The notes below the pieces were generated by a model, which saw nothing but the letters and a program-made list of their open reading frames with translations, searched no databases and had not been told where the DNA came from. The translations under genes were made by a program, and so were the position numbers. Shown here in pieces: positions 10,446 to 25,436 of a stretch of DNA of 64,000 nucleotides. Each line of letters begins with the position of its first letter. The first letter of the stretch is position 1. The stretch is taken from assembly GCA_040754455.1 (NCBI GenBank), contig JBFMCP010000006.1:1-64000 (forward strand), written 5' to 3'. This DNA is from Nitrospirota bacterium. Lineage in GTDB: Bacteria; Nitrospirota; Thermodesulfovibrionia; Thermodesulfovibrionales; Dissulfurispiraceae.

Positions 10446-10815
10446 CACTATAGTGCCGCCCTGCAGCACATCATAATGAGGACGATCAATTGCGCTGCCA
10501 AGGGCACATCCCTTTTTACCCGAAATGAAACTTTCAAGAGGTTGTAAGCCCGGGTGTTCTTCAATGTGACAAAGATAGTCCTGAGCTTGACAGCACGGGG
10601 AATGGGTGTCATCATTTATAGAATGGTCGATAGATTAACCACAATCCTGTTGTTTCAATTTCTCACCACACAACATCATACACACTGAAAAGCGGCCCGC
10701 TACCCCTGTGCGCCGGGACTATCTGTGCATGCAGAGCCGCTCTATGGTCAATTTCAAGAAAATGTGGGAGGTCGTTAATTCCTGCGCGGCATGCGCGGCA
10801 ATGGAGGAATTCATT

Positions 10816-12480
10816 ATGAAGAACGAACGGACACCGATTGTTTACGTTATAGGACACAAAACTCCGGATACGGATTCCGTCTGCTCGGCTATAGGACATG
10901 CGCACTTCAAGAACATTACTGACAAGCGCTTTCTCTTCACTCCTATGCGCGCCGGGCGCCTCAATGAGGAGACTCGATTTGTGCTCGAACGCTTCGGCGT
11001 TCCCTTTCCCGCTGAGATGGAGAGCCTGGCACCAACCATCGACGACCTGGAGTTGAGCAGGCCTGTCTCTATACATATCCGTGATTCAGTACAGTCGCTC
11101 GCCTTAATGTTGCGCAAACACGGCATCAGATCGGTTCCTGTGGTGGATGACAGCGGGCGTCTTGCAGGCATTGCAGGACTGAAGAATATTGCGCAGCATT
11201 ATATGGACAGCGTTGGGCTTACTGATCTGAGCAAGGCGCATGTCAGTCTCGATATTCTGGTGAAAACCCTTAACTGCAGAGTGATCAGCAATGCCAGGAG
11301 AATCGACCATCTGAGCGGCAGGGTGCTCATCGCCGCCATGCAGAAAGGGACGATGCTCAACAGGCTGCATCCCGGCGATATCGTTATTATCGGCGACCAG
11401 CATGACATCCAGAACGACCTTGTTGCTGCCGGGTGCTCCGCCCTCATAATTACCGATAACATGCCGGTGAGCAGTGATATTATCTCTGCAGCGGAAATGC
11501 ACGGGACCCTCTTGCTTTCCTCTCCTCACTCGGCCTTTGCTACGTTTCAACTGCTGACCATGGCGGTGCCTGTAGAGGCGGTCATGTGCTCTACCCCAAA
11601 TACTGCGGGGCTCGACACGCACCTTTCACATCTTCGCAAACGCATCCCCGGATCCGAATACCGCTCTGCAGTGGTGGTGGACAGCGATGATCGTCCGATC
11701 GGATTTATCACGATGACGGACCTGGTGCAGCCTGTCCGGAAAAAGGCCATCCTGGTAGACCATAATGAAATATCGCAGGCAGTCGACCATATCGGGGAAG
11801 CGGAAATTATAGAGATCATCGATCACCACCGGGTCGGCGACATCTCCACTGTTGCTCCCATCTACGTCTACAATGATCCGCTGGGGAGCACCTGCACCGT
11901 GGTAGCTGGTACCATGTTTCTCTACCAGATCGATATTCCACCGGAGATCGCAGGGATCCTGCTTTCAGGGATACTCTCCGACACCCTGATGCTCTCTCTG
12001 TCCACCACCACCGAGCGCGATCGCGGAATTGCCGAACGGCTTGCCGAGCTGGCGGGGGTCTCGATTAAAGACTATGGCAAAGAACTTCTCCATGCCAGCA
12101 TCAATATCGAAGGGAAAAGCGCAGCAGAGCTGATCGCCGCCGACTTCAAGGAATTCGTGATCGAGGACAAAAAGTTCGGGATCAGTCAGATGATGGTGCT
12201 CGACTGCGAGGACATCGAGGCTATGGAAGTGGAGCTCCTCGAGGAGCTGGAGCGGATGCGCGAGAAGAACAGGTATGATCTCACGGCACTGCTCATGACC
12301 AATCCTCTCAATGCGCAGCATGAGCACGTGCTTCTGAAGGGAGATACTTGGCTTGTGGAGCGGGCCTATGATGTAAAGGTGGAAGGCGATACCTGTTTTT
12401 TGCCCGGCATCCTTTCGCGGAAAAAGGATTTCATTCCGGCCATCGGAGAGGCCCTGCGGCAGAGCAGAAGGAGTGGGTGA
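10816..12480 (+). CDS. ppaC: Mn-dependent family II inorganic pyrophosphatase with CBS/DRTGG domains
   Basis: GHKTPDTDS, LVDHNE, IIDHH and SRKK motifs; CBS and DRTGG insert. Confidence 0.93.
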   Translation: MKNERTPIVYVIGHKTPDTDSVCSAIGHAHFKNITDKRFLFTPMRAGRLNEETRFVLERFGVPFPAEMESLAPTIDDLELSRPVSIHIRDSVQSLALMLRKHGIRSVPVVDDSGRLAGIAGLKNIAQHYMDSVGLTDLSKAHVSLDILVKTLNCRVISNARRIDHLSGRVLIAAMQKGTMLNRLHPGDIVIIGDQHDIQNDLVAAGCSALIITDNMPVSSDIISAAEMHGTLLLSSPHSAFATFQLLTMAVPVEAVMCSTPNTAGLDTHLSHLRKRIPGSEYRSAVVVDSDDRPIGFITMTDLVQPVRKKAILVDHNEISQAVDHIGEAEIIEIIDHHRVGDISTVAPIYVYNDPLGSTCTVVAGTMFLYQIDIPPEIAGILLSGILSDTLMLSLSTTTERDRGIAERLAELAGVSIKDYGKELLHASINIEGKSAAELIAADFKEFVIEDKKFGISQMMVLDCEDIEAMEVELLEELERMREKNRYDLTALLMTNPLNAQHEHVLLKGDTWLVERAYDVKVEGDTCFLPGILSRKKDFIPAIGEALRQSRRSG

Positions 12481-12499
12481 ACTTTTCTGTAACGAGACC

Positions 12500-12784
12500 T
12501 TATCGTTTGGGCAGGGTGAAGCTGATTACGTTGATGGTTACGGCATCTCCGGAGTTAGTATATTTTATTGCATTATCGAGAGGGTTTCTGATCATACGAT
12601 TTATCATGGCTGCATCGGCATTAATGGCAGGAATCGCTGTGTCCGACAGCTCAAAAGCTATGGTAATTTGTTTCTTTTCAGCCTCAACTTCTTCTGCTTC
12701 GATATTTTTCAGCATCTCCGCTTGCACATTAAAGGAAACAAGAAATTGACCTTCTGTCTCAATAAGAAAGTCAGGTCGGTCCAA
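12500..12784 (-). pseudogene. Histidine kinase HATPase fragment
   Basis: RMIRNPLDNAIKYT N-box with no upstream HisKA domain and no G boxes. Confidence 0.6.
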
Positions 12785-12917
12785 CTCGGAGTCCAGAATG
12801 GGCCTGAATGGTTGGCGAGATTACTCGCAATGGAAGACACGATTTACTCGAAATAAGCAGAATTTTAGAGCGATTTCAGGGCGGCAAAATTGACACAGTA
12901 TAAGCCATTGAAAAGAA

Positions 12918-12964
12918 AAGAGCCGGGAAGCGGACTCGAACCGCCGACCTGCTGATTACGAATC
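12918..12964. repeat. att site (distal copy of the tRNA-Thr 3' half)
   Basis: AAGAGCCGGGAAGCGGACTCGAACCGCCGACCTGCTGATTACGAATC, identical to 25361-25407. Confidence 0.97.
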
Positions 12965-13104
12965 GCTTAAAACTACCTCCGCAAGACCTTGAAAAACCCC
13001 ACAAACCCGCATAAATACTAGCTTTGCAGGCTTTTTACATCTTTTCGATATTCATCAAAATGCACGAATATTCATGCAAATTTATCACAAATTTAGCACA
13101 GTGA

Positions 13105-13210
13105 TTACATGAAGGCTTTTCTTCTTTTAAAAGCCTTCACGTCGCTTGCAGACAATTCGAACCATTCCCCGTTTTTTCGTCTGTCTGCAAATCGACCATG
13201 CCAGTCGAAA
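13105..13210 (-). pseudogene. C-terminal fragment of a GIY-YIG/T5orf172-like protein
   Basis: [18 protein letters not shown] motif without the N-terminal part. Confidence 0.5.
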
Positions 13211-13295
13211 GGCAAAAAATAAAGGAAACAGATCACATACGCCATCTCAGGTTTCTTGGTACGATCAACGGCATTAAATACATAGGAGGCATTAT

Positions 13296-13424
13296 ATGAC
13301 GAGGCAGGAAGCAAAAGAAAAAGCAGCAGAGGTGATCGTTAGAATGGTTGCGGAGATCGAGACTAACGGTTGTCACTCGATCAAAGAGAGCGAATTACGG
13401 GAGATTGCCGACGCCCTGAAGTAG
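13296..13424 (+). CDS. 42-aa hypothetical protein (not in ORF track)
   Basis: [51 protein letters not shown]; hairpin downstream. Confidence 0.6.
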
Positions 13425-13594
13425 CAGCGAACCCAGAGCCCCAAAGACGACAAAGAGCCCCGATCCGTTGCCGGAAAAGGGCTCTTTGCTTTGACAGGAG
13501 GTACTTATGGATATCTCTTGTAATAGCATCATCGAGACATAATTTTTTCTACTCGGCGCTATTTTCATATGTATCAACTTTTAGGAGGATACTT

Positions 13595-15007
13595 ATGGAA
13601 AAGAAGCGTTTCACCGAAGAAGAAAAAGCACAAGCAAGGGCAATCGATTTACCAGCTTACCTTGAGAGCAAAGGCATCAAAATTAAACTACGGGCACCGA
13701 TTCAATCACCGTTCCGCGTGGACCGACGACCATCCTTCAGTATCTACCAGCACAAAAAAAACGGTGACTGGGTAGGCTACGACTATTCACAGCAGAAGAC
13801 TTACGACGCAATCGCCATCGTCAGCGGGTTTACCAAGTTAGACTTTGTCGCGAGCGTCAAAGATATGCTCAACTACATCAACAGCCCTCAGCAACAGACA
13901 CAGGCGACGACCACGACCAACAACAGGGCGCAGAAAGAAGATACCAAATACAACGACGACGGCTTACCAATTGAGCGCACAACCAGCCGAGGCAACACCT
14001 TTACCTATAACTGGATCGACTCCGGCGACGAGTACGCGAGAGGAAAGGCGCTTGACCATTTCGTTGAAGACCGAAAGCTTCCTGCCGGAGCCCTGAACTT
14101 CCTTCTCAATGAAATGGGCTGCAGACTTGTCGAGATAAAAAACCAGGGTAACAGCTATGACCCCCGGTTATTCCTTGGTATAAAAAACGTCAATGGCGGC
14201 TGGGCGTTCAAGAGCCTCGATAAGTACGGATTCGATCAAAGCATACCGCCAACCGGCGCGAGCATTGCAAAGCTCAAAGGGGATGAAGTGCCAACCCTCG
14301 ACAGCAAACACGCCAATGTCGTCATCGTAGAGTCTTTAGCCAATGCCGGAGCATGGCGCTACGCACTCGATGAAGATGTGTATTTTACCGATACCCGCAG
14401 CGGCGATACGTATCTGATATCACTCAACAGCGCAAACAATGCCAAGGATGTCGAGGGGATTCTCAACGACCTGAAGGCTAAAGGTTACGAGAGTATCAGG
14501 GTCGCCAGCCATACAGATTATGATCCAACAGGGGAAGACGCCAATACAAAAATCGTGGGAATGGTAGAAGCGCTCCAAGCGCAGGGCATCAATATCGAGA
14601 TCGATCAAAGAGAGCGTAAAGCTATCGGGTGCGCTCTCGCCAACACAGAGAAACAAATCAATACCCTCTTAGCTCTCCAAGAGTATGACACCAAGGTCGA
14701 GAAGATCAAGGATTTAAAAGGGCAGATGTTTATTGAATCGGAGATTAGGCGGCAGATATGGGACATAAAAAACTACATCCCCTCTGATTCTGACAGCGCC
14801 GAGGAACAGGCAAGGGGAATACATCTTGCACTCAATTTCGACGAGGCATACAGCGCGAAGCGCGAAGAGCTGTACCCGCGAAAGCCTCTCGCTCTACCGA
14901 CTAGCGACTCCATGGCCGACATCATCGACGCGCCCCCGGCCAAGAGCCTACAGAGGGCGCAGGAAGGAAAAGCTAATACCGAAACATCCTGGAGACCGTT
15001 CCCCTAG
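13595..15007 (+). CDS. DNA primase (degenerate Cys-free CHC2-like domain plus TOPRIM)
   Basis: SPFRVDRRPSF...W..YD...DAI N-domain; VVIVES and DYD TOPRIM acidic motifs; AGGAGG RBS. Confidence 0.75.
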   Translation: MEKKRFTEEEKAQARAIDLPAYLESKGIKIKLRAPIQSPFRVDRRPSFSIYQHKKNGDWVGYDYSQQKTYDAIAIVSGFTKLDFVASVKDMLNYINSPQQQTQATTTTNNRAQKEDTKYNDDGLPIERTTSRGNTFTYNWIDSGDEYARGKALDHFVEDRKLPAGALNFLLNEMGCRLVEIKNQGNSYDPRLFLGIKNVNGGWAFKSLDKYGFDQSIPPTGASIAKLKGDEVPTLDSKHANVVIVESLANAGAWRYALDEDVYFTDTRSGDTYLISLNSANNAKDVEGILNDLKAKGYESIRVASHTDYDPTGEDANTKIVGMVEALQAQGINIEIDQRERKAIGCALANTEKQINTLLALQEYDTKVEKIKDLKGQMFIESEIRRQIWDIKNYIPSDSDSAEEQARGIHLALNFDEAYSAKREELYPRKPLALPTSDSMADIIDAPPAKSLQRAQEGKANTETSWRPFP

Positions 15008-15183
15008 AGAAGCCCCTTTAAATCGCCTTAGATTCGCTCAGAGCCCCGGTGATGTTCCGGGGCTTTTTATTTTTCATTTCCCGGACAATGTCCACCGTAT
15101 ACGCATATTATTTTGACCTCATTGCTATTACTTATAGGTGAGACGGTCAAAGACTGTCTACACCAAAGTAATGGAGGATTCAA

Positions 15184-15318
15184 ATGGAAAAGAAGGCAAT
15201 CAAACTGACTGTACGGGTAACGGCAGATGATTACAAAAAGCTACTCCAGAAGGCAGAGCAACAGGGTATCGGCGTAGCCACTGTTATACGTATGGCAGTG
15301 CGTCAGGAGGTGAAGTAA
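15184..15318 (+). CDS. 44-aa CopG-like ribbon-helix-helix protein (not in ORF track)
   Basis: GGAGG RBS; MEKKAIKLTVRVTADDYKKLLQKAEQQGIGVATVIRMAVRQEVK*; TAATG coupling to the next gene. Confidence 0.75.
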   Translation: MEKKAIKLTVRVTADDYKKLLQKAEQQGIGVATVIRMAVRQEVK

Positions 15319-15518
15319 TGTCCAGAGAAATCGCAAACGAAAAAAACGGCGAAAACATCGCTGCGAAGATCAACGGCGAATTCTACCCCGCAGGTAATTT
15401 TACGTCAGTGGAAGTAACTGACGGCGGGGTCTTTAGATTTAAAAAGGAAGAGGGCGAGATTTATGTAACCGGTAATATCTCCGTTACCGTGTGGGCTAAG
15501 AACGCCTCAAGGAGGTAA
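15318..15518 (+). CDS. Hypothetical 66-aa protein
   Basis: Translationally coupled; AGGAGG RBS. Confidence 0.65.
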   Translation: MSREIANEKNGENIAAKINGEFYPAGNFTSVEVTDGGVFRFKKEEGEIYVTGNISVTVWAKNASRR

Positions 15519-15521
15519 TCC

Positions 15522-17021
15522 ATGACCACAAAAAAAACGCCCCCGGCCAGCACCGGAGGCAATGGAAACGGAACCATGTCTACTGAAGATAATAGCGTAG
15601 CCACCGAACTTCCTTACGTTCTTTTTCCAGGGACGGCGGGGGCACCTCTGGAGCCAGGGCGGACAGGGAAAAAGAAAAACGAGCACCTAGAACACGCACG
15701 CGCTGAACTCAGCGCCGGACGTTGCGGAGCAGTACGTATGTATTACGATTTGAAGGCAGGGAGTTACTTTTTGATCAACTCCCAGGACGAAATAATATTC
15801 CTGAAGGAAACCGGGGCTAAAAAAACTATCTATGATGCTTTTGGAGTGAGTGGCAAAGAGGCGCAAGCGCTCATGCTCGACGTAATGAAAGTCTATCGCG
15901 TCTTTGATCCGGCAGCGCCGGAGATCGAATACGGCAGTGAAGGTGAAGCGCCGACGCTGAACATGTTTAAACCTTCTCGATACATGGAAATTGCCGACAA
16001 AACCATGAAGGATGAACGCATAACCGAATTAGACTGGGATAAGTACCCATCGGTGCGCTTGCTCCTTAGCAACGTCTTCGGTGATGATGAGGCGGGAGTC
16101 ATGTATTTCGTGAATTGGTTAAGCACGATCATCAACACTCGCCGCAAAACCAAGACAGCCATAGTATTGAAGGGTAGCCAAGGCGCAGGGAAAGGCGTAC
16201 TATTCGATCACGTTATCTCAAAGGCTATCGGAGAGAAATATTGCGCGATCGTCTCTAATGAAGAACTGAGAAGTGACTTTAACGATATCTTGGATAACCG
16301 GCTTTGCGTCGCATTCAACGAAATTCGGGCTGATCTACACGAACGTAATACTGTTTATGAGCGCTTGAAAGCTTATGTTACCGATGACAAAATTATTATC
16401 AATGGTAAATATCGGGCAGCGGTGCAGCAGCCGCAATTCTTCAACTGTGTCGTTTTTTCTAACCATGAAATTCCTTTACAGATTGAATGGTCAGACAGGA
16501 GATACAGTGTCTTCGAAACATCGCTATACAAGTTGCCGGAAGTAGTTAATCGAGAGTACGGCGACGATGTCACTATGTCGGAATTTATAGGGAGGATTTT
16601 GCCGCCAGAGGTAGACGAATTTCTCTCCGATGTTGCACGTTTCCGCTATGACATTACAACAGCAATGACCGCGAGAGCATCGGCGGCCAAGAAGAGAATA
16701 CAGGAATCAACAACGACCGCAATTATTAAACTTATCTCTCACATGAGGGAGAAAAACGTCGAATGGCTGGAGTCAGAGTTAGCGCCGCTGGCCGAAGCAA
16801 AGCAAGCGGCGGGGAGCCTTGTTGAATGGCAACGCTTGGAAGATTTCTTAAAAGAGGTCCAGGAGAACAAGTACACTCAGGAAACCTTAAAATGGTTGTA
16901 CCTCATTTACATTGGTCCTGAACAAAGTGAACGTAAAATATGGCAGACCTGGACGACACATATCAGCCATACTTACGTCAGCAACAGTACCCGGTACAGA
17001 TCGTTCGAACGTACTAAATAG
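15522..17021 (+). CDS. SF3-type (DUF5906/primase-helicase family) replication helicase
   Basis: Walker A GSQGAGKG, Walker B-like VAFNE, motif C FSN, DRR arginine finger. Confidence 0.85.
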   Translation: MTTKKTPPASTGGNGNGTMSTEDNSVATELPYVLFPGTAGAPLEPGRTGKKKNEHLEHARAELSAGRCGAVRMYYDLKAGSYFLINSQDEIIFLKETGAKKTIYDAFGVSGKEAQALMLDVMKVYRVFDPAAPEIEYGSEGEAPTLNMFKPSRYMEIADKTMKDERITELDWDKYPSVRLLLSNVFGDDEAGVMYFVNWLSTIINTRRKTKTAIVLKGSQGAGKGVLFDHVISKAIGEKYCAIVSNEELRSDFNDILDNRLCVAFNEIRADLHERNTVYERLKAYVTDDKIIINGKYRAAVQQPQFFNCVVFSNHEIPLQIEWSDRRYSVFETSLYKLPEVVNREYGDDVTMSEFIGRILPPEVDEFLSDVARFRYDITTAMTARASAAKKRIQESTTTAIIKLISHMREKNVEWLESELAPLAEAKQAAGSLVEWQRLEDFLKEVQENKYTQETLKWLYLIYIGPEQSERKIWQTWTTHISHTYVSNSTRYRSFERTK

Positions 17022-17239
17022 TACCCTTCAGTACACGGCAGTACAGAAGTACACTATTTTTCGGAAAAAACTCTTTTCCGGCGTTTTCTCCTGCTCTGGG
17101 TGGCGGCGTGGTTCTACACTTTTTTTCTTATATTTTACTGTACTTCTGTACTGAAAGAGAGATAAGGGTATGATATTGTTGTACTTTTGGGCAGTACACT
17201 TCTCAGTACAGATGGAGTACACTTGTACTTGTTCTGTAC
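16987..17239. repeat. GTAC iteron array, putative replication origin
   Basis: 15 GTAC cores in about 250 bp, flanking a T-rich tract right after the helicase gene. Confidence 0.7.
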
Positions 17240-17479
17240 TGTTCTGTGTGCTTTTCCCTGATGCTGAAAGACGGGCATAGTAGAAAAAAGGTAGTTAAGG
17301 ACAACAACAACTCCCTGCCCAAGCCGCCGAGACGATCCCCAGCCGCCCGCCCAGGATGACGGCCAGCGGGCCGAGGTACCCCAGGAACCCGGAAAACGCA
17401 AAAATGACGGAAAAGAGCCTTGCCCCCTGTCGAGAAGTTGACACGCAAAAACCGGGGGTTGAGCGTCAATTCCTTGAGT

Positions 17480-17516
17480 AACCCCCCCTCTGGAAAATTT
17501 TTCCAGAGGGGGGGTT
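17480..17516. repeat. 37-bp perfect palindrome
   Basis: AACCCCCCCTCTGGAAAA-T-TTTTCCAGAGGGGGGGTT. Confidence 0.9.
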
Positions 17517-17738
17517 TGTAAAGACTATCTACTGATTACACTTATCAATTAACTTGACCTTGCGCCCGGTCTTCCGGCCCGCCTGCCTTGCTCTTTCTCA
17601 TATAAGAAAGAAAACTTCCATTTTGCGTTATATACGGTGGACGCCGACGCCGTTTCGATCCCTTGATATTCTCTTTCTGAGCCCCCTTTCCCTCTCCTTG
17701 CTATTACTTCCTATATCAATTTCGACAGGAGGAAACAC

Positions 17739-18164
17739 ATGAATAACGACGACTCTCTCAAGGACATCATCGACGCGAAGCCGATCAAGTTAACACCCCA
17801 GGCGCAGCCAGCGCCGGGAGATGATACCATCGAAGCCGACAATATCACTATGACGTACACGTTGACGCGCAAAGACCTTGAGGCGCACATGCGGAAATTG
17901 TACGAGATGACTAGCGCAGATAAATTCGATACGGCTGTGAGCTTGGCTTGGTATAAATTTGACCCCACGAAAGATCGTGACACAGCGAATATGATGAGCC
18001 TTTTGACTGTCCTAGCAAGGTGTGAGCAGGACGGGGCAATTAAGCCCCCGGTTTCGTTGTCAGAGATGTACGCAGTAGCAGCCGGGAAGATCAACCCCGG
18101 CCAGGGGAAGCAGTTCCCCGGCGCGGGAGGCGGGCCGACGATGATAAGCGGAGTCCGAGGATAG
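17739..18164 (+). CDS. Hypothetical protein
   Basis: AGGAGG RBS; terminator follows. Confidence 0.7.
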   Translation: MNNDDSLKDIIDAKPIKLTPQAQPAPGDDTIEADNITMTYTLTRKDLEAHMRKLYEMTSADKFDTAVSLAWYKFDPTKDRDTANMMSLLTVLARCEQDGAIKPPVSLSEMYAVAAGKINPGQGKQFPGAGGGPTMISGVRG

Positions 18165-18183
18165 AAGGAAAGAAAAGAGAGAG

Positions 18184-18209
18184 AGCCCGGTAGAGATACC
18201 GGGCTTTTT
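18184..18209 (+). terminator. Intrinsic terminator between convergent genes
   Basis: AGCCCGGTA...TACCGGGCT followed by a T run. Confidence 0.75.
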
Positions 18210-18211
18210 TA

Positions 18212-19042
18212 TTACCGAAGGAGCAGGCGGGCAGTAGCAACCAGAGTAAGACCAAGACAAATCGCAAAAAGTACGGCCATCAACAAAAGGAAAGCCCGGT
18301 CTGTAAGCTTGTATTTCTCGCGATGCTCTCGGAAACGAGCTTGCAGGGCGTTGTATTGCGCCAAGAGACTATCATACTTTTCTCCTGAAGCCCTTTTTTC
18401 ATTCAGGGCTTTTTCCGCCTCTTTTAGCGACTCCCTCAGCGTATCACGCTCATTTGTCAGAGCGCTCACCTTATCGCACATGTCGCAACTGACCGGAGCC
18501 GTTGTGGACACCGAAGCAGCAGCCTTTAAATCCTCTATCTGACCTTGCAGCTCAGCGATATTGAGCAGCGTTCTGGATAGCTCTGCTTTCGTATCGCATC
18601 TCTCGCAATCGGCAGAGACATGGATAGTCTCGCGCTCTTCCTGGAGTTCTCTTTCAAGACCGGCGACTCTGGAGCAGGAGTCGCACGAAGGCACGTTGAT
18701 TACCTCATGAGATATGTCATCGATTTGTCTTTGCAGATTGTTGACATTCTGACAATTATTACAATTCCGCTCGACTTCCAGGGCGCGGAGCTGATCGAAG
18801 AGCCTTTCAATTTCCTCCTTATCTTCCTTTTTGGCATCTTCGAAACCGGCGTCAAAGCCCTCTGTATATTCCTTGCAATTATCGCAATCGGGAGCCTGTA
18901 TACAGGTCTCCCCTTCCTGCTTACAGGGGTGTAAACAGTCCAGGACTAAGCCCTTAACAAACTCGGAAATAGTTCCGTCAGCCCTTTCCTTTAATGCGTC
19001 AAAGTCCTCTTCTGAGATTCTAAAGCTTATCGGTTTACTCAT
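18212..19042 (-). CDS. RHH DNA-binding protein with five CxxC-punctuated coiled-coil segments and a C-terminal TM helix
   Basis: AGGAGG RBS at 19051-19056; KPISFRISEEDFDALK RHH; CDNC, CNNC, CDSC, CERC, CDMC; AFLLLMAVLFAICLGLTLVATA tail. Confidence 0.8.
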   Translation of the reverse strand: MSKPISFRISEEDFDALKERADGTISEFVKGLVLDCLHPCKQEGETCIQAPDCDNCKEYTEGFDAGFEDAKKEDKEEIERLFDQLRALEVERNCNNCQNVNNLQRQIDDISHEVINVPSCDSCSRVAGLERELQEERETIHVSADCERCDTKAELSRTLLNIAELQGQIEDLKAAASVSTTAPVSCDMCDKVSALTNERDTLRESLKEAEKALNEKRASGEKYDSLLAQYNALQARFREHREKYKLTDRAFLLLMAVLFAICLGLTLVATARLLLR

Positions 19043-19212
19043 TGTATACACCTCCTGTATACGGGAAATCATCTGTATACAGGTATCAATAGCCCTGTAT
19101 ACAGGAAAGCCCCTCAACCTGTATACAGCTTATGCCCTGTATACAAAAATCTGTATACAGTCCCCCTGAAGTGTATACAAACCCGTATACAACCCTAAAA
19201 AACCTGTATACA
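19043..19212. repeat. Array of ten (T)GTATAC(A) palindromes
   Basis: Copies start at 19043, 19056, 19074, 19096, 19120, 19138, 19152, 19172, 19184, 19205. Confidence 0.92.
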
Positions 19213-19269
19213 AGGGTTTAAACACCCCCTCCATACGCATATAAATTTGAGGTCAACGCTATTGTTATA

Positions 19270-19390
19270 AGAAGAAGCAAGCAGTAGATCGCGACGCCGC
19301 CCTTTCAGGGCAGCTTACGCGCTGCTTGCCCCTCTCGGATGAGAGGGGATACCCCGCCCCCGATGGGGGCACCCCGCACGCGGGGATAGG
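19270..19390. other. Putative oriT
   Basis: Nested inverted repeats (GCAAGCAG/CTGCTTGC, GCCCCC/GGGGGC, CCCCGC/GCGGGG) directly upstream of mobC. Confidence 0.55.
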
Positions 19391-19412
19391 AGAACGACCA
19401 GGAGGAACGGCA

Positions 19413-19706
19413 ATGAGAAAACGTTTAACAGTCCGAATCACTGAAGACGAGCACGCTACTATCCAGGATAAAGCCGCAATCGCCGGGCTCAGCATGTCGA
19501 AGTATCTCATAAAGGCAGGACTCTCGCGGCAGATCAAGCCGCCGTTACCGGAGGAGGTACGGAGGGCTATAGCAGGGTTCGGCAGGAACCTTAATCAGCT
19601 TGCCCATAAATGCAATATCAACGACGCAGCACCAGAGGCGGGCGAAGTAAGGGAATTAAGGGAAGACGTAAGGGAGCTTTTAGAGGCGATCGCGGACAGG
19701 GCTTAG
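19413..19706 (+). CDS. mobC: Relaxosome accessory protein MobC
   Basis: RHH N-terminus and GRNLNQLAH motif. Confidence 0.88.
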   Translation: MRKRLTVRITEDEHATIQDKAAIAGLSMSKYLIKAGLSRQIKPPLPEEVRRAIAGFGRNLNQLAHKCNINDAAPEAGEVRELREDVRELLEAIADRA

Positions 19707-19762
19707 GGGACTTTCTCATATAAGAAAGTTTTGACTGATTTTGCGTATTGAGAGGGGACAAA

Positions 19763-20971
19763 ATGGCAACGTCGAACATGCGTGGTATCTCAGCGGCCAA
19801 TGGTTTTGTCTCGTACTGTAAAGATAAAAAAGGCAAGACAGAGCGGGTGAAATATGAGTATTCAACCTTTACCAATCAAAGGGCAGAAATGAAACTAATG
19901 CGCGGCCGTAAATATAACGGGATCGATTTCCGTGTAAGCTTTGATCCTAACGACCGGAAATTAACAGAAGAAGAATTTAAAGCCATCGCCCAAGAGCTTG
20001 CAGAGCGGTATCTAGGAAGCCGCCCTTTTGTCGCAGTACTGCACAGTGAGACGGACCATGAGCATATACATTTTGTTAGCACATACTTAGATGAAAACGG
20101 AAAATGTATTTGCACCAAAGGACCCAAGGGCGACGAAGAGTGTAAGCGGCGGCAAGAAATAGTTGATAGGGTTTGCCGGAAATACAATCTTTCTACTCTG
20201 CCACGAAATGAAAACGGCTACAACAGTAAAGACGGTATCCCAGGTTATCAATACAAAAAAGAGCGGATCACCAAAGCTGAAAAGCAGGGCAAGCAGCCTG
20301 AAAAAGCTGCACTCCGCCGGTTGATTGATGGAGCGCTATCGATAGAGAGCTTAGAACCCTACATTGTACGCGAGAAGGAAAATTCGTTGACGTTTGAATA
20401 TAAGGGGAAGCGCTATCGCCTGGATAGCTTTGATAAGAGGCTCAAGAACCGGGCTGATTTAGAAAGCCGCATCAGAGAGCGCACTATGAAAAAACAATCG
20501 TCTAATGACCGTCTCCGGCGCTCAGAGCAGTTATTTTTAAATCGCCTCTCTAGGACCGTAGAGGCTCTCTCGTACAAAAAATACAACCGCAACGAAATAC
20601 AGGGCATAGCAGACAAAGTATTGCAGCACAGAGCCCAGGCAAACGACCCCAGCCAACGCTGGGAAGCACTTAAAAAAATGCGCTCAGAGCTCGACCAGAT
20701 TATGACTCGTGAGCAGCTACGCCAGATCAAAAACCAGATGTACCAAGAGAAGCACCAGCGGTATCAATCAAAAGTGCTCCGCCGGGTGCTCCGGGAGAGG
20801 AACCCGATTATTGCGTTTGTACTCTCGATAAACGTGATCCTCTCAGCACTTGCTGAAGCTATTAAAGACAGAAAACATGACAACAACGTCAAAGATATCA
20901 TCGATCATAAGGCAAACATCCAGAGCAGCAACATAGACCACAACACTCACAACAGCGGACCAAGAGTCTAA
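19763..20971 (+). CDS. HUH relaxase (MOB-P-like)
   Basis: N-terminal Tyr (FVSYC), VSF motif II, HSETDHEHIHFV 3H motif; follows mobC. Confidence 0.85.
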   Translation: MATSNMRGISAANGFVSYCKDKKGKTERVKYEYSTFTNQRAEMKLMRGRKYNGIDFRVSFDPNDRKLTEEEFKAIAQELAERYLGSRPFVAVLHSETDHEHIHFVSTYLDENGKCICTKGPKGDEECKRRQEIVDRVCRKYNLSTLPRNENGYNSKDGIPGYQYKKERITKAEKQGKQPEKAALRRLIDGALSIESLEPYIVREKENSLTFEYKGKRYRLDSFDKRLKNRADLESRIRERTMKKQSSNDRLRRSEQLFLNRLSRTVEALSYKKYNRNEIQGIADKVLQHRAQANDPSQRWEALKKMRSELDQIMTREQLRQIKNQMYQEKHQRYQSKVLRRVLRERNPIIAFVLSINVILSALAEAIKDRKHDNNVKDIIDHKANIQSSNIDHNTHNSGPRV

Positions 20972-21023
20972 ACGAGGACGGGAATAACCCCGCCTTTGCT
21001 ATTACTAATAGAGGAGGAATGAC

Positions 21024-22250
21024 ATGGATTTTGCGACACTCTATAACAATCTAGTCCAGAGTTTTTCCGGTATCCTCAATTCATGGGGAAACGAGATTAG
21101 CGCTGTAGCAATGGGGTTGGCTCTCGCATTTACGTTGATCCGCATCGCAAATGAGGGCTGGAAAGGCGGCTATGACAAAATAATGCCCTTCATTAAAGAT
21201 CAGGTAACGAAATTCTTTATTGTTTGTGCCCTTTGTATCCCCCTCGACGTTGGACCTTTGCAGGGTAGTTTCCTAGTCGCATTTCCACGGGTCGTTATGA
21301 CGGCCGGGTTTGAGACAGCGAAAACTATGGTACAGCATAGTGAAACGTGGCACTCAGAAACACTCGTCGCGCTGCCGAAAGGTTTAGACGAAAAAATCGA
21401 TAAAATCCGCGCAGCAAAAGACGCAGAGCTTATGAAACAGAGAGGCATTATGACAAGGCTCTTGAGAATGGTAAAAGAGGCGCTTGTTATCAGTTTCATG
21501 GACTTCTTTAATATGTTCGCACATCTCAGGACGCTTGCAGTCGTTGGTATCCTCGTAATCATGTTGCTACCCGTCTTCATAGGATTAATTATGTTAGGCG
21601 GCGAGGGAGGATGGATTGCAAGCGCAGTAATCCTTGCATACTTATTCATGAAAATTGGCGCTTGGGCGACAGGCACAGAGAGCCCACAGATCGATTTGAC
21701 TGTCCATGAGACAATGACCTGGGCGACTAATAAAATCGCTAATTTCGCCTTTATCGGGATTTCATCATTTACATTTTTCGGGGTGATGATAAGCGCGACT
21801 GTTCAGAGTGTAATTCACACGCTGTTATTCCCCTTTTCCGTAATGAATATGGCATTTGAGACGCGGCGGCAGATATTTATGAATCACATTGCAAAAATGT
21901 TTCAACTAGCTTTGACGCCAGTTATCGCTTGTCTCATCTTCATGGTTTCGGCAGAGAGTTTCGCGCTACTCTCTGCAAAAAGCGGGCTCATCGAGGTCAT
22001 GCGCAGCGTCTACGTCGGAGACATGCCAGCCACGGACGCCGACTTTTTTGTCGTCGTTGGTTGGTTTTTCCGGTTTTGTGTTGCTGCTTTGATATCGCCG
22101 ATGGTGCTTGCGATGCCAGTTGCGACGTTAATCAAACAGTCATCGAGATTCGCCGGGGAAGTCGTTGGACAAGGATTCGCGATGGTAAACAATTTCCAAC
22201 AATGGAGCAGTATTGGCAGTAATCCTATGCCAATGCCGGGCAAAAAATAA
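21024..22250 (+). CDS. Polytopic membrane protein, VirB6/TrbL-like
   Basis: Several TM helices with a central soluble loop; located after the relaxase; family is inferred. Confidence 0.55.
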   Translation: MDFATLYNNLVQSFSGILNSWGNEISAVAMGLALAFTLIRIANEGWKGGYDKIMPFIKDQVTKFFIVCALCIPLDVGPLQGSFLVAFPRVVMTAGFETAKTMVQHSETWHSETLVALPKGLDEKIDKIRAAKDAELMKQRGIMTRLLRMVKEALVISFMDFFNMFAHLRTLAVVGILVIMLLPVFIGLIMLGGEGGWIASAVILAYLFMKIGAWATGTESPQIDLTVHETMTWATNKIANFAFIGISSFTFFGVMISATVQSVIHTLLFPFSVMNMAFETRRQIFMNHIAKMFQLALTPVIACLIFMVSAESFALLSAKSGLIEVMRSVYVGDMPATDADFFVVVGWFFRFCVAALISPMVLAMPVATLIKQSSRFAGEVVGQGFAMVNNFQQWSSIGSNPMPMPGKK

Positions 22251-22263
22251 CCAAGGAGGAACT

Positions 22264-22437
22264 ATGGATATCAAAAAAATCAAAAAGACTCTCACGGTGA
22301 CAGAGAAAGACAAGCAGACGTTTATCACAGCAGCGCTCGACGAGAGCTTGTCAATCGGCAGACTCAGCGTAGCTATTTTTATCGCTGTAGTAGTAATGAG
22401 CGCGGCATTTAACATCGCCGCTGAGATTGCGAGGTAA
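22264..22437 (+). CDS. 57-aa protein with a hydrophobic C-terminal helix
   Basis: AGGAGG RBS. Confidence 0.6.
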   Translation: MDIKKIKKTLTVTEKDKQTFITAALDESLSIGRLSVAIFIAVVVMSAAFNIAAEIAR

Positions 22438-22441
22438 CGCC

Positions 22442-23437
22442 ATGAGACAACTAACACCACAGCAGTACGACACTCTCAAGGCTATGAGAGATGACCTCAA
22501 CGACTTTATAGCCGAGAGGGACGCGAAGCAAAAAGAGCGCTTTGCGGAGTCGGAAGAACTCTCAAAGACCCCGAAGTGGCGGGCATTCCGGGAGCGGCTT
22601 TTCGGCTATGCTAGAGAGTGTAGAGACGTATCAATATACAACTACACTGGTAAAGACGGGCAAAAAAGAGAAGTTGTCATGCATCCGTCGAAACTGCCTC
22701 TCATAACGCAGGTACAGCGCTACGTAGAGGACAAGTACCGGCGTTACGGGCTAGACGCGCTCTATCACGTCTATCAACGTCTAACAGAGCGGCACGGGGC
22801 TTTAGCGGTATTGCTCCCGGTAGTCCGGGATATCGCGGGGCTCGATCAAGACATTATCGATGAGCTTAGTAAAGAACGGCTTATCACAGTTGCCGGAAAT
22901 CGTATCTATCCTCAGTTGTGGTTTTTCGGGGTTGAAGCCCCAAAAGCCAAAGCTGCGCTCGCACAGATGTTCTCTACTGCGCCACAAAAGACTTTAGAAG
23001 ACATCAGAGAAATGCTTGTCTATGCTAAACATCTCATCTCCGTCGAACAGCAGACGTACAACGACTATAGAGAGGCACAGAGCACTATAGATGCATCGAG
23101 ATACAGAGCGCTTCTAGCCGCAGTTGAAAGTCTCCCTACGAAGACTGAGGAAGAGGCAAAAGAACTAGACAAATTCAAAACGGAGATCACCGCTGCACAG
23201 AGCGCCGGGCTTCTGTATTCATGGTTTATCGTCAAATCACAGGTCAATAAAGAGCTCGTATCAAGCGACATCAAGCGCATTGAAAATGCGATGTACCCGT
23301 CTTCAGGCGCTGATCGGCTCTCTACCGAGGACGAGCGCGTATTTTCGTATATTGTCTCAACGTATAAACCAGCTATTTCAGGCGACACAAACGCATTCAA
23401 AGTTTACGAATCATGGATGCGTGAGCTATCCATGTAA
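22442..23437 (+). CDS. Hypothetical helical protein
   Basis: GAGG RBS; operonic. Confidence 0.7.
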   Translation: MRQLTPQQYDTLKAMRDDLNDFIAERDAKQKERFAESEELSKTPKWRAFRERLFGYARECRDVSIYNYTGKDGQKREVVMHPSKLPLITQVQRYVEDKYRRYGLDALYHVYQRLTERHGALAVLLPVVRDIAGLDQDIIDELSKERLITVAGNRIYPQLWFFGVEAPKAKAALAQMFSTAPQKTLEDIREMLVYAKHLISVEQQTYNDYREAQSTIDASRYRALLAAVESLPTKTEEEAKELDKFKTEITAAQSAGLLYSWFIVKSQVNKELVSSDIKRIENAMYPSSGADRLSTEDERVFSYIVSTYKPAISGDTNAFKVYESWMRELSM

Positions 23438-23455
23438 CCCTTAAGAAAGGAGGTA

Positions 23456-23695
23456 ATGACTATGCAATCACTAATGCAGTTAGGTATGGGCGATCCCACA
23501 CCCCTTGTAAACATGACATCCGAAGCAACGGAGCTTTTCAACAAGCTCAGCGCCGGGGCTAACGAAGCTTCACAAATGGCCGACATCATCTCTGCCCCCA
23601 GCATACTTACAAAAGGCGCAGAGTTCGTCCAGGATCAAGGACAGCAGCAGGACGAGTACACAAGCCCGTCTTTAAGTCCAAGACCGGGCATGTAA
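23456..23695 (+). CDS. Small acidic hypothetical protein
   Basis: AAGGAGG RBS; terminator at 23713-23749. Confidence 0.65.
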   Translation: MTMQSLMQLGMGDPTPLVNMTSEATELFNKLSAGANEASQMADIISAPSILTKGAEFVQDQGQQQDEYTSPSLSPRPGM

Positions 23696-23847
23696 CACTT
23701 GATATCCACCGCGAGCCCTTCCCTGGCTTTGTCAGGGCGGGGCTTTTTTATTGTCAGCATGTAAACTTTCTTTTTTTGTATATGTTCGTAAAAATGCATC
23801 GTTCTGACGCTATTTCCATATACATCAACTTTTAGGAGGAGATGTAT

Positions 23848-24153
23848 ATGGAAAAGCTTTTGACAGCAGAAGAACTCTCGAAAATACTGAGAGTAGAAGT
23901 TCACACGATTCACGTATGGACGCACTCAAAACGTATACCTTATCTCAAAGCCGGACATCTACTTAGGTTTAGGTGGTCAGATATTGAGGCATGGATGCAG
24001 GGGAAAACGACGGCGAAGATCGCGGCGCAGTACAAAGAAGAGAAGCCCAAAGCAGAGACGAAGGTAAAGACCGGGAGAAGAAAAAAAAGTCATGGGCAAG
24101 GCTCGTATATCAAGGCAATCGTAAAAGGCACAATTGCCGAGGTTATCGGCTAA
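23848..24153 (+). CDS. xis: Excisionase-like HTH protein
   Basis: LLTAEELSKILRV...W....IPY.K.G..LRF pattern; adjacent to the integrase. Confidence 0.85.
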   Translation: MEKLLTAEELSKILRVEVHTIHVWTHSKRIPYLKAGHLLRFRWSDIEAWMQGKTTAKIAAQYKEEKPKAETKVKTGRRKKSHGQGSYIKAIVKGTIAEVIG

Positions 24154-24228
24154 TTGATATAATCTCCGCAAGTGTTCTTTGACAACGGGAATTTTCAAAG
24201 GTCTTGCGGAGTCCAAGAAGGAGAAACT

Positions 24229-25290
24229 ATGAGACAACGCAAGAAATACGACGGACTTTTTCTGAGAGGAAAAATCTGGTGGATGTCGTTCGTTATTAAT
24301 GGGAGACAGTACCGAGAGTCAACAGAAACGGAAGATAGGAAACTTGCCGAAATCGTCAGGGCAAAGGTGCTTGTCGAAATAGCAGAAAATCGCTGGTTTC
24401 CGCGCAAACAAGCGGAGAAAAAAGGCTGGTCTGATATCGTTATCTTGATGAACGATAACATGGAGCAGAGAGAGCCAAAGACACAGATATTTTATAAACA
24501 GCGCCTTGCTTATCTGGACAATTATTTTAAAGGTCACAAGCTCGCTCAAATTGATCGTACCGCTATCCAAGACTATCTTACACAGAGGCGGAGGGATGCA
24601 GCAGAAGATAAAAAACGCTGCTCCGGTACGACGCTCAACAGAGAGCTTGCTATCCTCTCCAAAATGTTCAACCTTGCGATAAAACAAGGATGGATCGATT
24701 CGAACCCCTGCTTTGGAATCGAGAGATATAAAGAGCCCAAAGACATAGGACAGCATCTCTCAGAAGAGGACGAGCCGAAGCTATTAGAGGCAGCTAAACC
24801 ATATCTCAACGGCGACCTTATAGATATGGTTATATTAGCCATATATACCGGCATCCGTAAAGGACAAGTAATATCGCTGCATTGGGATAAGATTGACCTC
24901 GACGGAAAACGCTTTGAGACGTACAACGAGAAAACCAATGAATGGTATGTGCTACCCATGGCAGAGATGGTATATCAAATGCTGCTACGGCGCTCAGAAA
25001 GCCGTAAGACAGGCTATGTCTTTCAGACAGCGGCTGGGACTCAATACGACGGTATGAATGTGCTTCACTGGTTTCAGAGAGCTTGCAAAGATGCCAAGTT
25101 GCCAAAAATGAGATTCCATGATCTCAGGCACACCACTGGAAGCAGGCTTGCGCGTCTCGGGTGTGATATCCATTTTATCTCCGGGGTACTCAATCATAGT
25201 CAACTTTCGACGACCCGGCGATATGCAAAACACAACGTCGCAAGTCTTCAAAAAGGGCTCGATTTACTCACTCAAAAACAGCCAAATTAG
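24229..25290 (+). CDS. int: Tyrosine integrase
   Basis: TGIR, RFHDLRH, LNH and RRYA catalytic residues. Confidence 0.95.
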   Translation: MRQRKKYDGLFLRGKIWWMSFVINGRQYRESTETEDRKLAEIVRAKVLVEIAENRWFPRKQAEKKGWSDIVILMNDNMEQREPKTQIFYKQRLAYLDNYFKGHKLAQIDRTAIQDYLTQRRRDAAEDKKRCSGTTLNRELAILSKMFNLAIKQGWIDSNPCFGIERYKEPKDIGQHLSEEDEPKLLEAAKPYLNGDLIDMVILAIYTGIRKGQVISLHWDKIDLDGKRFETYNEKTNEWYVLPMAEMVYQMLLRRSESRKTGYVFQTAAGTQYDGMNVLHWFQRACKDAKLPKMRFHDLRHTTGSRLARLGCDIHFISGVLNHSQLSTTRRYAKHNVASLQKGLDLLTQKQPN

Positions 25291-25363
25291 CACAAAATTA
25301 GCACAATTGACCCCAAAACAGAAAAAAGGGTTACAGTATTACCTGTAACCCTTTGATTTTAAG

Positions 25364-25436
25364 AGCCGGGAAGCGGACTCGAACCGCCGACCTGCTGATT
25401 ACGAATCAGCTGCTCTACCAACTGAGCTATCCCGGC
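25364..25436 (-). tRNA. tRNA-Thr(CGT), CCA not encoded
   Basis: Cloverleaf GCCGGGA...TCCCGGCT; anticodon arm GCTGA-TT-CGT-AA-TCAGC; GGTTCGA T loop. Confidence 0.97.

Follow-up and report, generated by a model that had tools for sequence, protein, structure and literature searches.

A probable integrative mobilizable element with its own primase-helicase replicon in an uncultured Nitrospirota bacterium

Background

The closest described systems to the element reported here, which lies in a 64,000-bp stretch of an uncultured Nitrospirota genome (hereafter the window) and is probably an integrative mobilizable element (IME) with its own primase-helicase-iteron replicon, are islands that are mobilized by a helper. 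SGI1, as set out in passages of PMC7433901, is excised when its helper triggers it and then replicates as a plasmid, and the iterons and AT-rich regions of its vegetative origin (oriV) lie immediately 3' of rep. Passages of PMC7433901 and PMC5704250 also describe the VirB6 homologue of SGI1, TraG, which reshapes the helper pore, and the alternative replication modules carried by SGI1 relatives; in those of PMC5704250, SGI1 itself encodes neither a relaxase nor relaxosome proteins. The same passages state that most IMEs hold maintenance modules such as replication. They describe an IncP island with its own MobP relaxase, TraJ/TraK-type relaxosome proteins, TrbJ, TrbL (VirB6), and a small intervening protein; GISul2, which encodes TrbJ, TrbK, and TrbL; and NBU1, NBU2, Tn4555, and Tn4399, which combine a tyrosine integrase and an excision factor with a MobP-type relaxase and depend on a helper (PMC5704250).

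Mobile elements of Nitrospirota have barely been described, and the lineage studied here, from groundwater and biofilm, is known only from metagenomes. We found no such integrative relaxase element from Nitrospirota in titles and abstracts, and our literature search returned no paper joining DUF5906 with a relaxase. An earlier note, made from the letters of the window, had described the element as an apparently intact satellite that parasitizes conjugation and replicates on its own after excision. Here, we follow up that description with family scans, comparison with related elements, structure models, and public sequencing runs.

Results

The window corresponds to C6:1-64000, a stretch of one contig in a 3.27-Mb assembly of 92 contigs that is 100% complete by markers. 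We scanned the 14 open reading frames (ORFs) of the element with Pfam, NCBIfam, PHROGs, and PADLOC. The element is bounded by attachment (att) repeats and encodes its own recombinase, and it carries a mobilization module with no full conjugation apparatus, the features by which IMEs are recognized (Guedon et al. 2017). Since it has genes for excision, copying, and nicking but no transfer channel, it most likely rides the conjugation machine of another element. No match to VirB4, AAA_10, TraC, TrbL, TrbI, or a coupling protein was found in the element, and we rejected its classification as an integrative and conjugative element on the grounds that no VirB4-type ATPase, coupling protein, or mating-pair formation genes were found. 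Capsid, terminase, packaging, capsid-size-redirection, and phage-responsive repressor families also gave no match among the 14 ORFs (Pfam, NCBIfam, PHROG), and the PHROG scan gave no phage-family match besides int, xis, and the helicase. Defence cargo was considered and set aside, as PADLOC gave only weak coiled-coil-type matches to o301 and a DnaG-like match to the primase. Much of the gene content given in the earlier note is borne out by these scans and by the comparisons below: 47-bp att repeats that run into the anticodon arm of tRNA-Thr, intact int and xis, a TOPRIM primase with an SF3 helicase and iterons, an oriT-mobC-relaxase arrangement (the origin of transfer, oriT, as candidate hairpins), and a lack of VirB4, coupling protein, capsid, and terminase genes and of recognizable cargo. 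The coordinates of all features are collected in Table 1.

Table 1. Features of the element and its integration target, in window coordinates
Feature	Coordinates	Strand	Basis or remark
attL, left 47-bp direct repeat, which duplicates the 3' part of tRNA-Thr	12918..12964	.	Repeat search
69-aa ORF, C-terminal end only of a MUG113/T5orf172-type domain (fragment)	13105..13314	-	PF13455 profile positions 43-72 of 73
Divergent DnaG-type primase	13595..15007	+	Homologue families, Toprim residues, Foldseek
66-aa ORF, no family, just 5' of the helicase gene	15318..15518	+	ORF list, Pfam scan
SF3 helicase (DUF5906 / VapE-like / P4-family primase C-terminal region)	15522..17021	+	Pfam, NCBIfam, PHROG
Candidate oriV, direct and inverted AGTACA/TGTACT repeats flanking a T-rich stretch	17021..17245	.	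Begins at the helicase stop codon
25-nt inverted repeat with T/A runs, read as a two-way terminator-like hairpin	17473..17523	.	Repeat search; 88% complementary
o141, 141-aa conserved protein	17739..18164	+	Shared peptide LKDIIDAKP at N-terminus
o301, 276-aa protein	18212..19042	-	ORF list and alignment with the G114 orthologue; transcribed away from mobC
Eight exact TGTATACA palindromes in the intergenic region of the divergent genes o301 and mobC	19043..19212	.	0.18 expected in the whole window
Candidate oriT, three hairpins 5' of mobC and 3' of the TGTATACA array	19277..19370	.	-30.7 kcal/mol, z = -4.18
mobC, NikA-like / MobA-type ribbon-helix-helix relaxosome accessory protein	19413..19706	+	NikA-like 9.9e-20
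Relaxase, N-terminal MobA/VirD2-type nuclease domain	19763..20971	+	PF03432 3.2e-16, 60.3 bits against a cut-off of 24.6
408-aa polytopic membrane protein, rare family; possible distant TrbL/VirB6 relative	21024..22250	+	Indirect leads
Small ORF with one hydrophobic segment	22213..22437	+	Kept beside the membrane protein in one relative
o336, 336-aa conserved protein	22427..23437	+	Homologue comparison
o79, 79-aa protein; C-terminal part resembles relaxase tails (MADIISAPS ... LSPRPGM)	23456..23695	+	Homologue comparison
xis, excisionase-type HTH_17 protein	23842..24153	+	HTH_17 2.7e-11; TIGR01764 35.5 bits against a cut-off of 28.8
int, tyrosine integrase	24172..25290	+	PF00589 1.9e-26; phrog_1 1.1e-58
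attR, right copy of the 47-bp repeat, within the tRNA gene	25361..25407	.	Repeat search and ARAGORN
tRNA-Thr(CGT), integration target	25363..25436	-	ARAGORN; Rfam tRNA 71.5 bits

The two 47-nt direct repeats are a perfect pair that brackets 12,443 bp, and a search of the whole 3.27-Mb assembly found these two copies only. The 33-nt core of the repeat had 2 matches in the window, compared with 0 in 100 shuffles. From the coordinates of the tRNA gene, the right repeat corresponds to tRNA positions 30-74 plus two bases, and so runs from the 3' end into the anticodon stem. The left repeat is a copy of the 3' 45 nt of tRNA-Thr(CGT), the classic footprint of integration into a tRNA gene, and int and xis adjoin attR. 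Rfam found tRNA-Thr only, with no further RNA family. GC content is 0.44-0.51 within the element versus 0.55 and 0.58 in the adjoining 1-kb flanks. A second genome of the same genus (G202) has tRNA-Thr(CGT) together with the genes on the window's tRNA side, at 60-88% protein identity, and on the other side of this tRNA lie genes for a P-type ATPase, a Usp protein, and sensor kinases. There is no element in this genome, no integrase at tRNA-Thr(CGT), and no match to the membrane protein, and the 3' part of the tRNA is not duplicated among the repeats listed. Together, the comparison with this genome and the GC contrast indicate that the window element is an insertion.

The replication module is made up of a primase gene, a helicase gene, and a candidate oriV. 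The helicase matched DUF5906 at 70.7 bits (cut-off 27.6), the P4-family primase_Cterm model TIGR01613 at 9e-8, and PHROG primase/helicase families; its Walker A motif is GSQGAGKG, its Walker B motif is VAFNE, and its gene is the only DUF5906 gene of the genome. It is likely to be the origin-binding initiator. Following the helicase gene, 11 exact AGTACA/TGTACT hexamers lie in 17030-17240 (211 bp); the whole window has 25 of them versus about 12 expected, and 0 of 100 shuffles reached 25. The candidate oriV aligns well with the region 3' of the helicase gene in a related element (copy 1) of a Nitrospirae metagenome-assembled genome (MAG), G114. In this alignment, 9 repeats read AGTACA/TGTACT in the window and AGCACA/TGTGCT in copy 1, with nearly identical spacers. 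A concerted one-base change in all aligned repeats, next to a helicase that is 71% identical, argues for protein-specific recognition, as expected of origin iterons. The repeats 3' of the helicase gene are thus best explained as initiator-specific iterons of an origin, and this comparison supports a replication module that looks functional.

We take the product of 13595-15007 to be a DnaG-type Toprim primase that has diverged and whose zinc ribbon is degenerate. A database search gave three relatives, two of which carry PF13155/PF01807/PF13362 (E values of 5.9e-14 and 7.2e-7), and the Toprim residues E246, D308, and D310 (E, DxD) are invariant in the 4-sequence alignment. The zinc-ribbon-like N-terminal domain is degenerate, yet it is recognized at 0.019. 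In a Foldseek search with the structure model, the top three rows were Aquifex DnaG, T7 primase, and B. subtilis DnaG (E values of 1.9e-3 to 9.6e-3); a search against PDB sequences returned nothing usable.

Related elements indicate which parts of this arrangement are kept. Among 401 Nitrospirota genomes, the membrane protein is present in the window's own genome and in G114 only, in line with the earlier view that few such elements have been characterized in this lineage. G114 has two related copies on one contig. Copy 1 (L005/L098) lies away from any tRNA, between 23-bp perfect repeats with a distance of 11,359 bp. Its gene order is that of the window (helicase, o301, mobC, relaxase, membrane protein, o336, xis, int), except that o141 has moved behind o336 and a primase-like N-terminal match lies on the opposite strand. 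Protein identities are 71% for the helicase, 31% for an o301-like protein (opposite strand), 51% for mobC, 51% for the relaxase, 46% for the membrane protein, 29% for o336, 43% for o141, 32% for o79, 43% for xis, and 34% for int.

Copy 2 (L097) begins beside tRNA-Val and tRNA-Asp and retains mobC, the C-terminal half of the relaxase (47%), the membrane protein (49%), a small ORF, o336, o141, and o79. Its replication module instead pairs a RepB_primase (2.8e-12 and 3.1e-11) with an AAA_25 helicase (9.8e-27); a different integrase gene comes next. The relaxase-like ORF of copy 2 (L097:11316-12554, G114:C58) shares only residues 206-378 with the window relaxase; its N-terminal 200 residues are unrelated and have no Pfam match. 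The C-terminal half of the relaxase thus behaves as a separate module that travels with the membrane protein, and the non-homologous replication pair shows that a primase and a helicase are kept by function, not by descent. In the three elements, the constant part of the family is the mobilization block, while a primase-helicase pair is always present but exchangeable. A scan of genome contigs with a single protein and a scan of metagenomes with the membrane-protein alignment gave no further elements, and a metagenome scan with the relaxase alignment gave distant relaxases only, at no more than 45% identity over short segments; the comparison is therefore limited to three elements.

These data bear on whether the element could be a phage satellite of the P4 or phage-inducible chromosomal island (PICI) kind, packaged by a helper phage and carrying the relaxase as a side feature. 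Such a satellite would be expected to have an integrase, a primase, an SF3 helicase, and an iteron origin beside the helicase gene, and the helicase does match PHROG primase/helicase families and the P4-family model. However, no ORF matched a capsid, terminase small subunit, packaging, or capsid-size-redirection family, and the core common to the three elements is the relaxase block rather than the replication block. We consider a phage satellite very improbable and favor an IME.

Within the mobilization block, the relaxase is of the MobA/VirD2 type (PF03432) and MOBP-like. MOB typing had been put forward in the earlier note, and its outcome is clear in the catalytic residues: the tyrosine Y23 and the histidines H99, H104, H106, and H108 are invariant in 7 sequences. 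We rejected membership in two curated subfamilies, as both scores fell far under the cut-offs (Bacteroid_MobB, 45.9 with an E value of 3.9e-12 versus a cut-off of 400; MobP1, 18.8 versus 200). It is the only PF03432 relaxase of the genome. In a large clustered protein set, it has 6 relatives at 39-56% identity, with the C-terminal half conserved, and among 185,579 species genomes its sole close locus is in G114, at 51% identity, the next best being in Flavobacteriaceae at about 28% identity over the nuclease domain. The mobC gene likely starts at the ATG at 19413. The sequences of the hairpins 5' of mobC are conserved in copy 1, and we read them as a candidate oriT.

The TGTATACA palindromes between o301 and mobC, 8 within 170 bp in the window, number at least 10 at the same place in copy 1 (counted by eye). 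We read this array as putative binding sites of o301 or MobC, which would make it a candidate operator or relaxosome loading region. The o301 protein has a conserved N-terminal MSK.ISFR.SE motif, then a predicted coiled coil with five CxxC pairs, and a C-terminal hydrophobic anchor; the G114 orthologue keeps three CxxC pairs, the motif, and the anchor. By its pattern, the N-terminal part seems ribbon-helix-helix-like, and BLASTP found no significant similarity between o301 and MobC. Adjoining the array, o301 may be a membrane-tethered DNA-binding protein.

Downstream of the relaxase gene lies the 408-aa membrane protein that the earlier note had called VirB6-like. It belongs to a rare family: 5.8 billion clustered proteins contain 7 relatives, and 26 representatives reach E ≤ 0.001 in a set of 1.84 billion. 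Sub-threshold matches to TrbL (PF04610) occur in 6 of 29 family members, in the same region and with a best E value of 2.6e-4, whereas families other than TrbL recur no more than 3 times. Its neighbors in the ESM Atlas are TrbL and CtnDOT_TraJ clusters (0.91-0.93, TM 0.49-0.59). A profile search against PDB sequences returned nothing usable. The leads from family members and the ESM Atlas thus agree with the proposed VirB6 likeness, but Pfam, hhalign, and Foldseek did not return such a match (detailed below), and we see the case for a distant relationship to VirB6 as about evenly balanced. For the neighboring o336, the ESM Atlas gave no usable lead, and a predicted complex of o336 with o79 scored 0.09, a value that is uninformative on binding.

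The DNA repeats D7 and D16 led to a peptide shared by four proteins of the element. It reads SMADIIDAPPAKSL at the C-terminus of the primase, which ends in MADIIDAPP; SLKDIIDAKPIKL at the N-terminus of o141; QMADIISAPSIL in o79; and NVKDIIDHKANI in the C-terminal tail of the relaxase (with VKDIIDHK). A fifth DIID lies in o336 and is not conserved. Across the genome, the six-frame ORFs contain DII[DS] 94 times in their 2.17 million residues, or 43 per million; the element has 5 in about 3,900 residues versus about 0.17 expected. The G114 orthologues have D[IV]LNPP at matching positions (the o141 N-terminus, o79, and a 90-95-aa ORF), and primase homologues end in DV[ST]DI[IM]NP. Relaxase homologues have DIL[NK].P near the C-terminus and then end in ...PGR, as do the o79 orthologues (...DNY..DLSPRPGR). 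The copies of the peptide in any one element have changed in step (DII[DS]A in the window, D[IV]LNP in G114), which hints at a co-evolving partner, and we propose that it may be a common docking or export handle. Conjugative type IV secretion systems (T4SSs) move several plasmid proteins into recipients, according to PMC8406263. A bolder version, to which we give little weight, is that the mobilization block goes beyond a relaxosome, that the element marks a set of proteins for one recognition site, for co-export with DNA or on a shared platform, and that this platform may belong to a yet-unrecognized transfer machine, as the near absence of canonical T4SS genes from the host family would suggest.

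The shared peptide also bears on the role of the replication genes. The element could still be an IME while its primase and helicase act after transfer and not in vegetative replication of the excised circle: they would help it to establish in the recipient by priming and unwinding DNA so that the complementary strand can be made, as plasmid-encoded primases do. A tail peptide shared by primase and relaxase fits their co-transfer, as does the known carriage of plasmid proteins by conjugative T4SSs (PMC8406263), and the depth of the element in sequencing runs is not above that of its flanks. Against this, the repeats that follow the helicase gene and the helicase itself have changed together, a pattern that is origin-like and unneeded for mere priming. 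Copy 2, moreover, swaps in an RSF1010-type RepB primase and AAA_25 helicase, which we take to be a pair for vegetative replication. Establishment in the recipient as the role of these genes is, in our judgment, improbable, and we retain an IME with its own replicon as the preferred explanation.

To ask where a helper might come from, we searched the own genome and its lineage for transfer genes. The only coupling protein of the own genome is of the TrwB type (2.9e-99), on contig C8, within a second island. This second island (L003:9914-19347, L004:4316-5476) carries HTH_17, a 1261-aa TrwC-type relaxase, a ParM-like protein, the TrwB-type coupling protein, a cytochrome c7, and a tyrosine integrase, and it has no VirB4; it might cooperate with the window element. 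Strong TrwB-type coupling proteins (best E ≤ 1e-70) were found in 10 of 61 host-family genomes, including both element hosts. In the set of 401 Nitrospirota genomes, TrbL and VirB4 cluster in another family, f29 (20/75 and 18/75), while the host family has TrbL in 0 of 35 genomes and one weak VirB4 match in 35. The only VirB4-like genes in the 61 host-family genomes are at G401:C37:11586-12209 and G338:C98:25371-25655, each near a coupling-protein-like gene, and these two loci are candidate helper systems for islands of this lineage.

We further examined the state of the element in Logan assembled contigs from four public runs of two studies, where depths are whole-contig figures and not copy numbers. 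In runs X1 and X2, a single contig of 12,456 bp (12935-25390) represents the element, and its ends lie inside the repeats. A graph of 31-mers must break in a 47-bp repeat, so no junction is readable from the contigs; positions uncovered in run X4 were set aside. The element contig is letter-identical in X1 and X2, and each flank has one changed letter in X2 (12873 and 25784); this fits a recent spread of the element, though the numbers are small. Low-depth contigs (4.7-11.2) from X1-X3 carry a variant of the TGTATACA region, window 18930-19093, with several changed letters. At 19042-19093 it skips 50 bases, the gap being filled by 9 other letters, and there is a strand-switch joint at 17482/18893. 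The variant represents either another allele or a relative of the element within these communities.

A number of observations weigh against an actively transferred IME with its own replicon. In the Logan contigs, which break at the 47-bp repeat, neither the circle nor the empty site was seen. Element depth is below that of the flanks, at 58.4 versus 68.9 and 64.5 in X1, 26.4 versus 45.3 and 41.4 in X2, and about 5-6 versus 10.2 and 9.2 in X3. The coverage ratio, named in the earlier note as a check on replication, thus gave no sign of over-replication, and the depths fit a population partly without the element. In G202, the genome of the same genus, a DNA search gave no counterpart of the window's left flank (10700-12917), so the exact empty site cannot be reconstructed from it. 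A helper T4SS, which the same note had proposed to look for in the genome, was not found there: VirB4, AAA_10, TraC_F_IV, TrbL, and TrbI all had 0 matches. Canonical T4SS genes were not found in G114 either, and in the denser sample of host-family genomes VirB4 exceeded its cut-off in 1 of 61. The primase is under all curated cut-offs (Zn_ribbon_DnaG 0.019, Toprim 0.041, dnaG 0.0079, phrog DNA primase 6.1e-5); in its CHC2 ribbon, SPFR..PSF and G.W.G.D replace the four Cys/His zinc ligands in 4 of 4 sequences, and its AlphaFold2 (AF2) model has a confidence (pLDDT) of 56 overall, with about 80 for the N-terminal domain. The membrane protein has no Pfam match, even at an E value of 10, and its AF2 model, nearly all helix, has a pLDDT of 54. 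Comparing its family by hhalign with six Nitrospirota TrbL proteins, a shallow alignment, gave a probability of 0.9%, and Foldseek on the model gave nothing at E ≤ 0.001, with R388 TrwI/VirB6 (7o3v_H, from the VirB5/VirB6 stalk) at rank 30 and an E value of 1.5.

Part of this evidence would also suit a stranded, immobile remnant that integrated once, has no helper in its lineage, and is kept by inertia. Such a remnant would agree with the lack of a T4SS in the genome, with VirB4 over its cut-off in a single host-family genome, and with the absence of junction evidence in Logan contigs. Yet all ORFs are full-length relative to their homologues and the 47-bp repeats match perfectly; runs of two studies share every letter of the 12,456-bp element contig, while both flanks changed in X2; a depth below the flanks suggests that part of the population is without the element; and the relatives occupy other sites. 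We regard a stranded remnant as unlikely. The satellite-like, conjugation-parasitizing life proposed earlier is consistent with the IME gene content and the origin comparison, while the depths in three runs give no sign of the independent replication that it includes.

The near absence of T4SS genes also raises the possibility that the element is self-transmissible by a VirB4-less apparatus made up of the membrane protein, the small membrane ORF, o336, o141, o79, and o301, or that it uses some envelope machine of the host that is not a T4SS. This block is conserved in all three elements, both host genomes are without canonical T4SS genes, and T4SS genes are nearly missing from the host-family genomes searched. 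On the other hand, no protein of the block matches a Walker-type NTPase family, and to our knowledge all conjugation systems require a motor. Two genomes of the family do carry VirB4-like genes, and binning of MAGs often loses plasmids, which could hide a helper. Self-transmission of this kind seems highly unlikely to us, and dependence on the conjugation machine of another element remains the preferred explanation.

Smaller features lie at the left end and beside the origin. The 69-aa ORF at 13105-13314 is probably a remnant at the left end of the element. Between the origin repeats and the terminator-like hairpin at 17473-17523 sits a 49-aa ORF (17295-17444, minus strand) with a long hydrophobic stretch and an SCCCP end. 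It has no family match and could be a small membrane peptide, a toxin-like gene, or nothing.

Discussion

We suggest that the element is probably an IME with its own primase-helicase-iteron replicon, and the following course of events would account for its gene content. Int and Xis would free a circle of 12,443 bp through recombination between attL and attR. The helicase would recognize the AGTACA repeats flanking the T-rich stretch, open the origin, and replicate the circle together with the primase, which would prevent loss of the circle before transfer or re-integration. MobC and the relaxase would then nick at the hairpin-rich oriT just 5' of mobC, and the nucleoprotein would be passed to the coupling protein and T4SS of another element. 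The block that follows the relaxase gene (the membrane protein, possibly of the VirB6 type, the small membrane ORF, o336, o141, and o79) may adapt the element to the helper machine, with the tail peptide of the relaxase, primase, o141, and o79 as a putative common recognition handle.

For a phylum with few described mobile elements, this is a compact, apparently complete example with defined ends, a candidate origin, a candidate oriT, and a small set of conserved uncharacterized proteins. The tail peptide gives a tangible starting point for asking how an island that lacks a coupling protein brings its proteins to the machine it borrows. As the specificity repeats of the candidate origin differ by one base from those of a relative, a swap experiment is possible. 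The element also supports a general point derived from SGI1, namely that mobilizable islands keep their own replicon and exchange it as a module.

The principle of such an island is already known, with SGI1, the IncP island, and GISul2 as precedents. Like SGI1, as described in the passages cited above, the element is an integrated, presumably helper-dependent mobilizable island with int and xis and with a candidate iteron origin directly 3' of a replication gene. The likeness is drawn from these descriptions. SGI1 has a RepA-type initiator, whereas the element has a split primase and SF3 helicase. SGI1 further differs in its trmE site, its 42-kb length, its resistance cargo, its Gammaproteobacteria hosts, and its known IncA/C helper. 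By the definition given in passages of PMC7433901, we rejected membership in the SGI1 family, since the target is tRNA-Thr and not trmE, and a primase and SF3 helicase stand in place of RepA. With the IncP island and GISul2, as the passages describe them, the element shares a relaxosome, a membrane subunit, and a small protein without VirB4 or a coupling protein. Their subunits, however, are plainly homologous to those of the IncP helper, whereas the membrane protein of the element has no family-level match, and the passages of PMC5704250 on these islands describe no primase-helicase replicon.

The mobilizable elements of Bacteroidota resemble the element in their relaxases: Bacteroid_MobB is the nearest curated model, and, beyond the small family, the closest relaxases come from Flavobacteriaceae. 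The resemblance is limited to at most about 28% identity over the nuclease domain and a Bacteroid_MobB score far under the cut-off. NBU1 inserts at the 3' end of a tRNA gene and has a primase-like gene, and we know of no SF3 helicase or iteron origin in mobilizable elements of Bacteroidota. Satellites of the P4 type and PICIs, including Staphylococcus aureus pathogenicity islands (SaPIs), share with the element an integrase, primase and SF3-type helicase functions, and an iteron origin beside a replication gene, the layout in which phage satellites have their origin. They differ in that the element has no packaging or capsid-remodeling matches and has a relaxase block instead. Set beside these systems, what is new here is the phylum, the rare protein families, and a split DnaG-type/SF3 replicon with a readable change of specificity, along with the exchange of replication modules around a constant mobilization block and the shared tail peptide.

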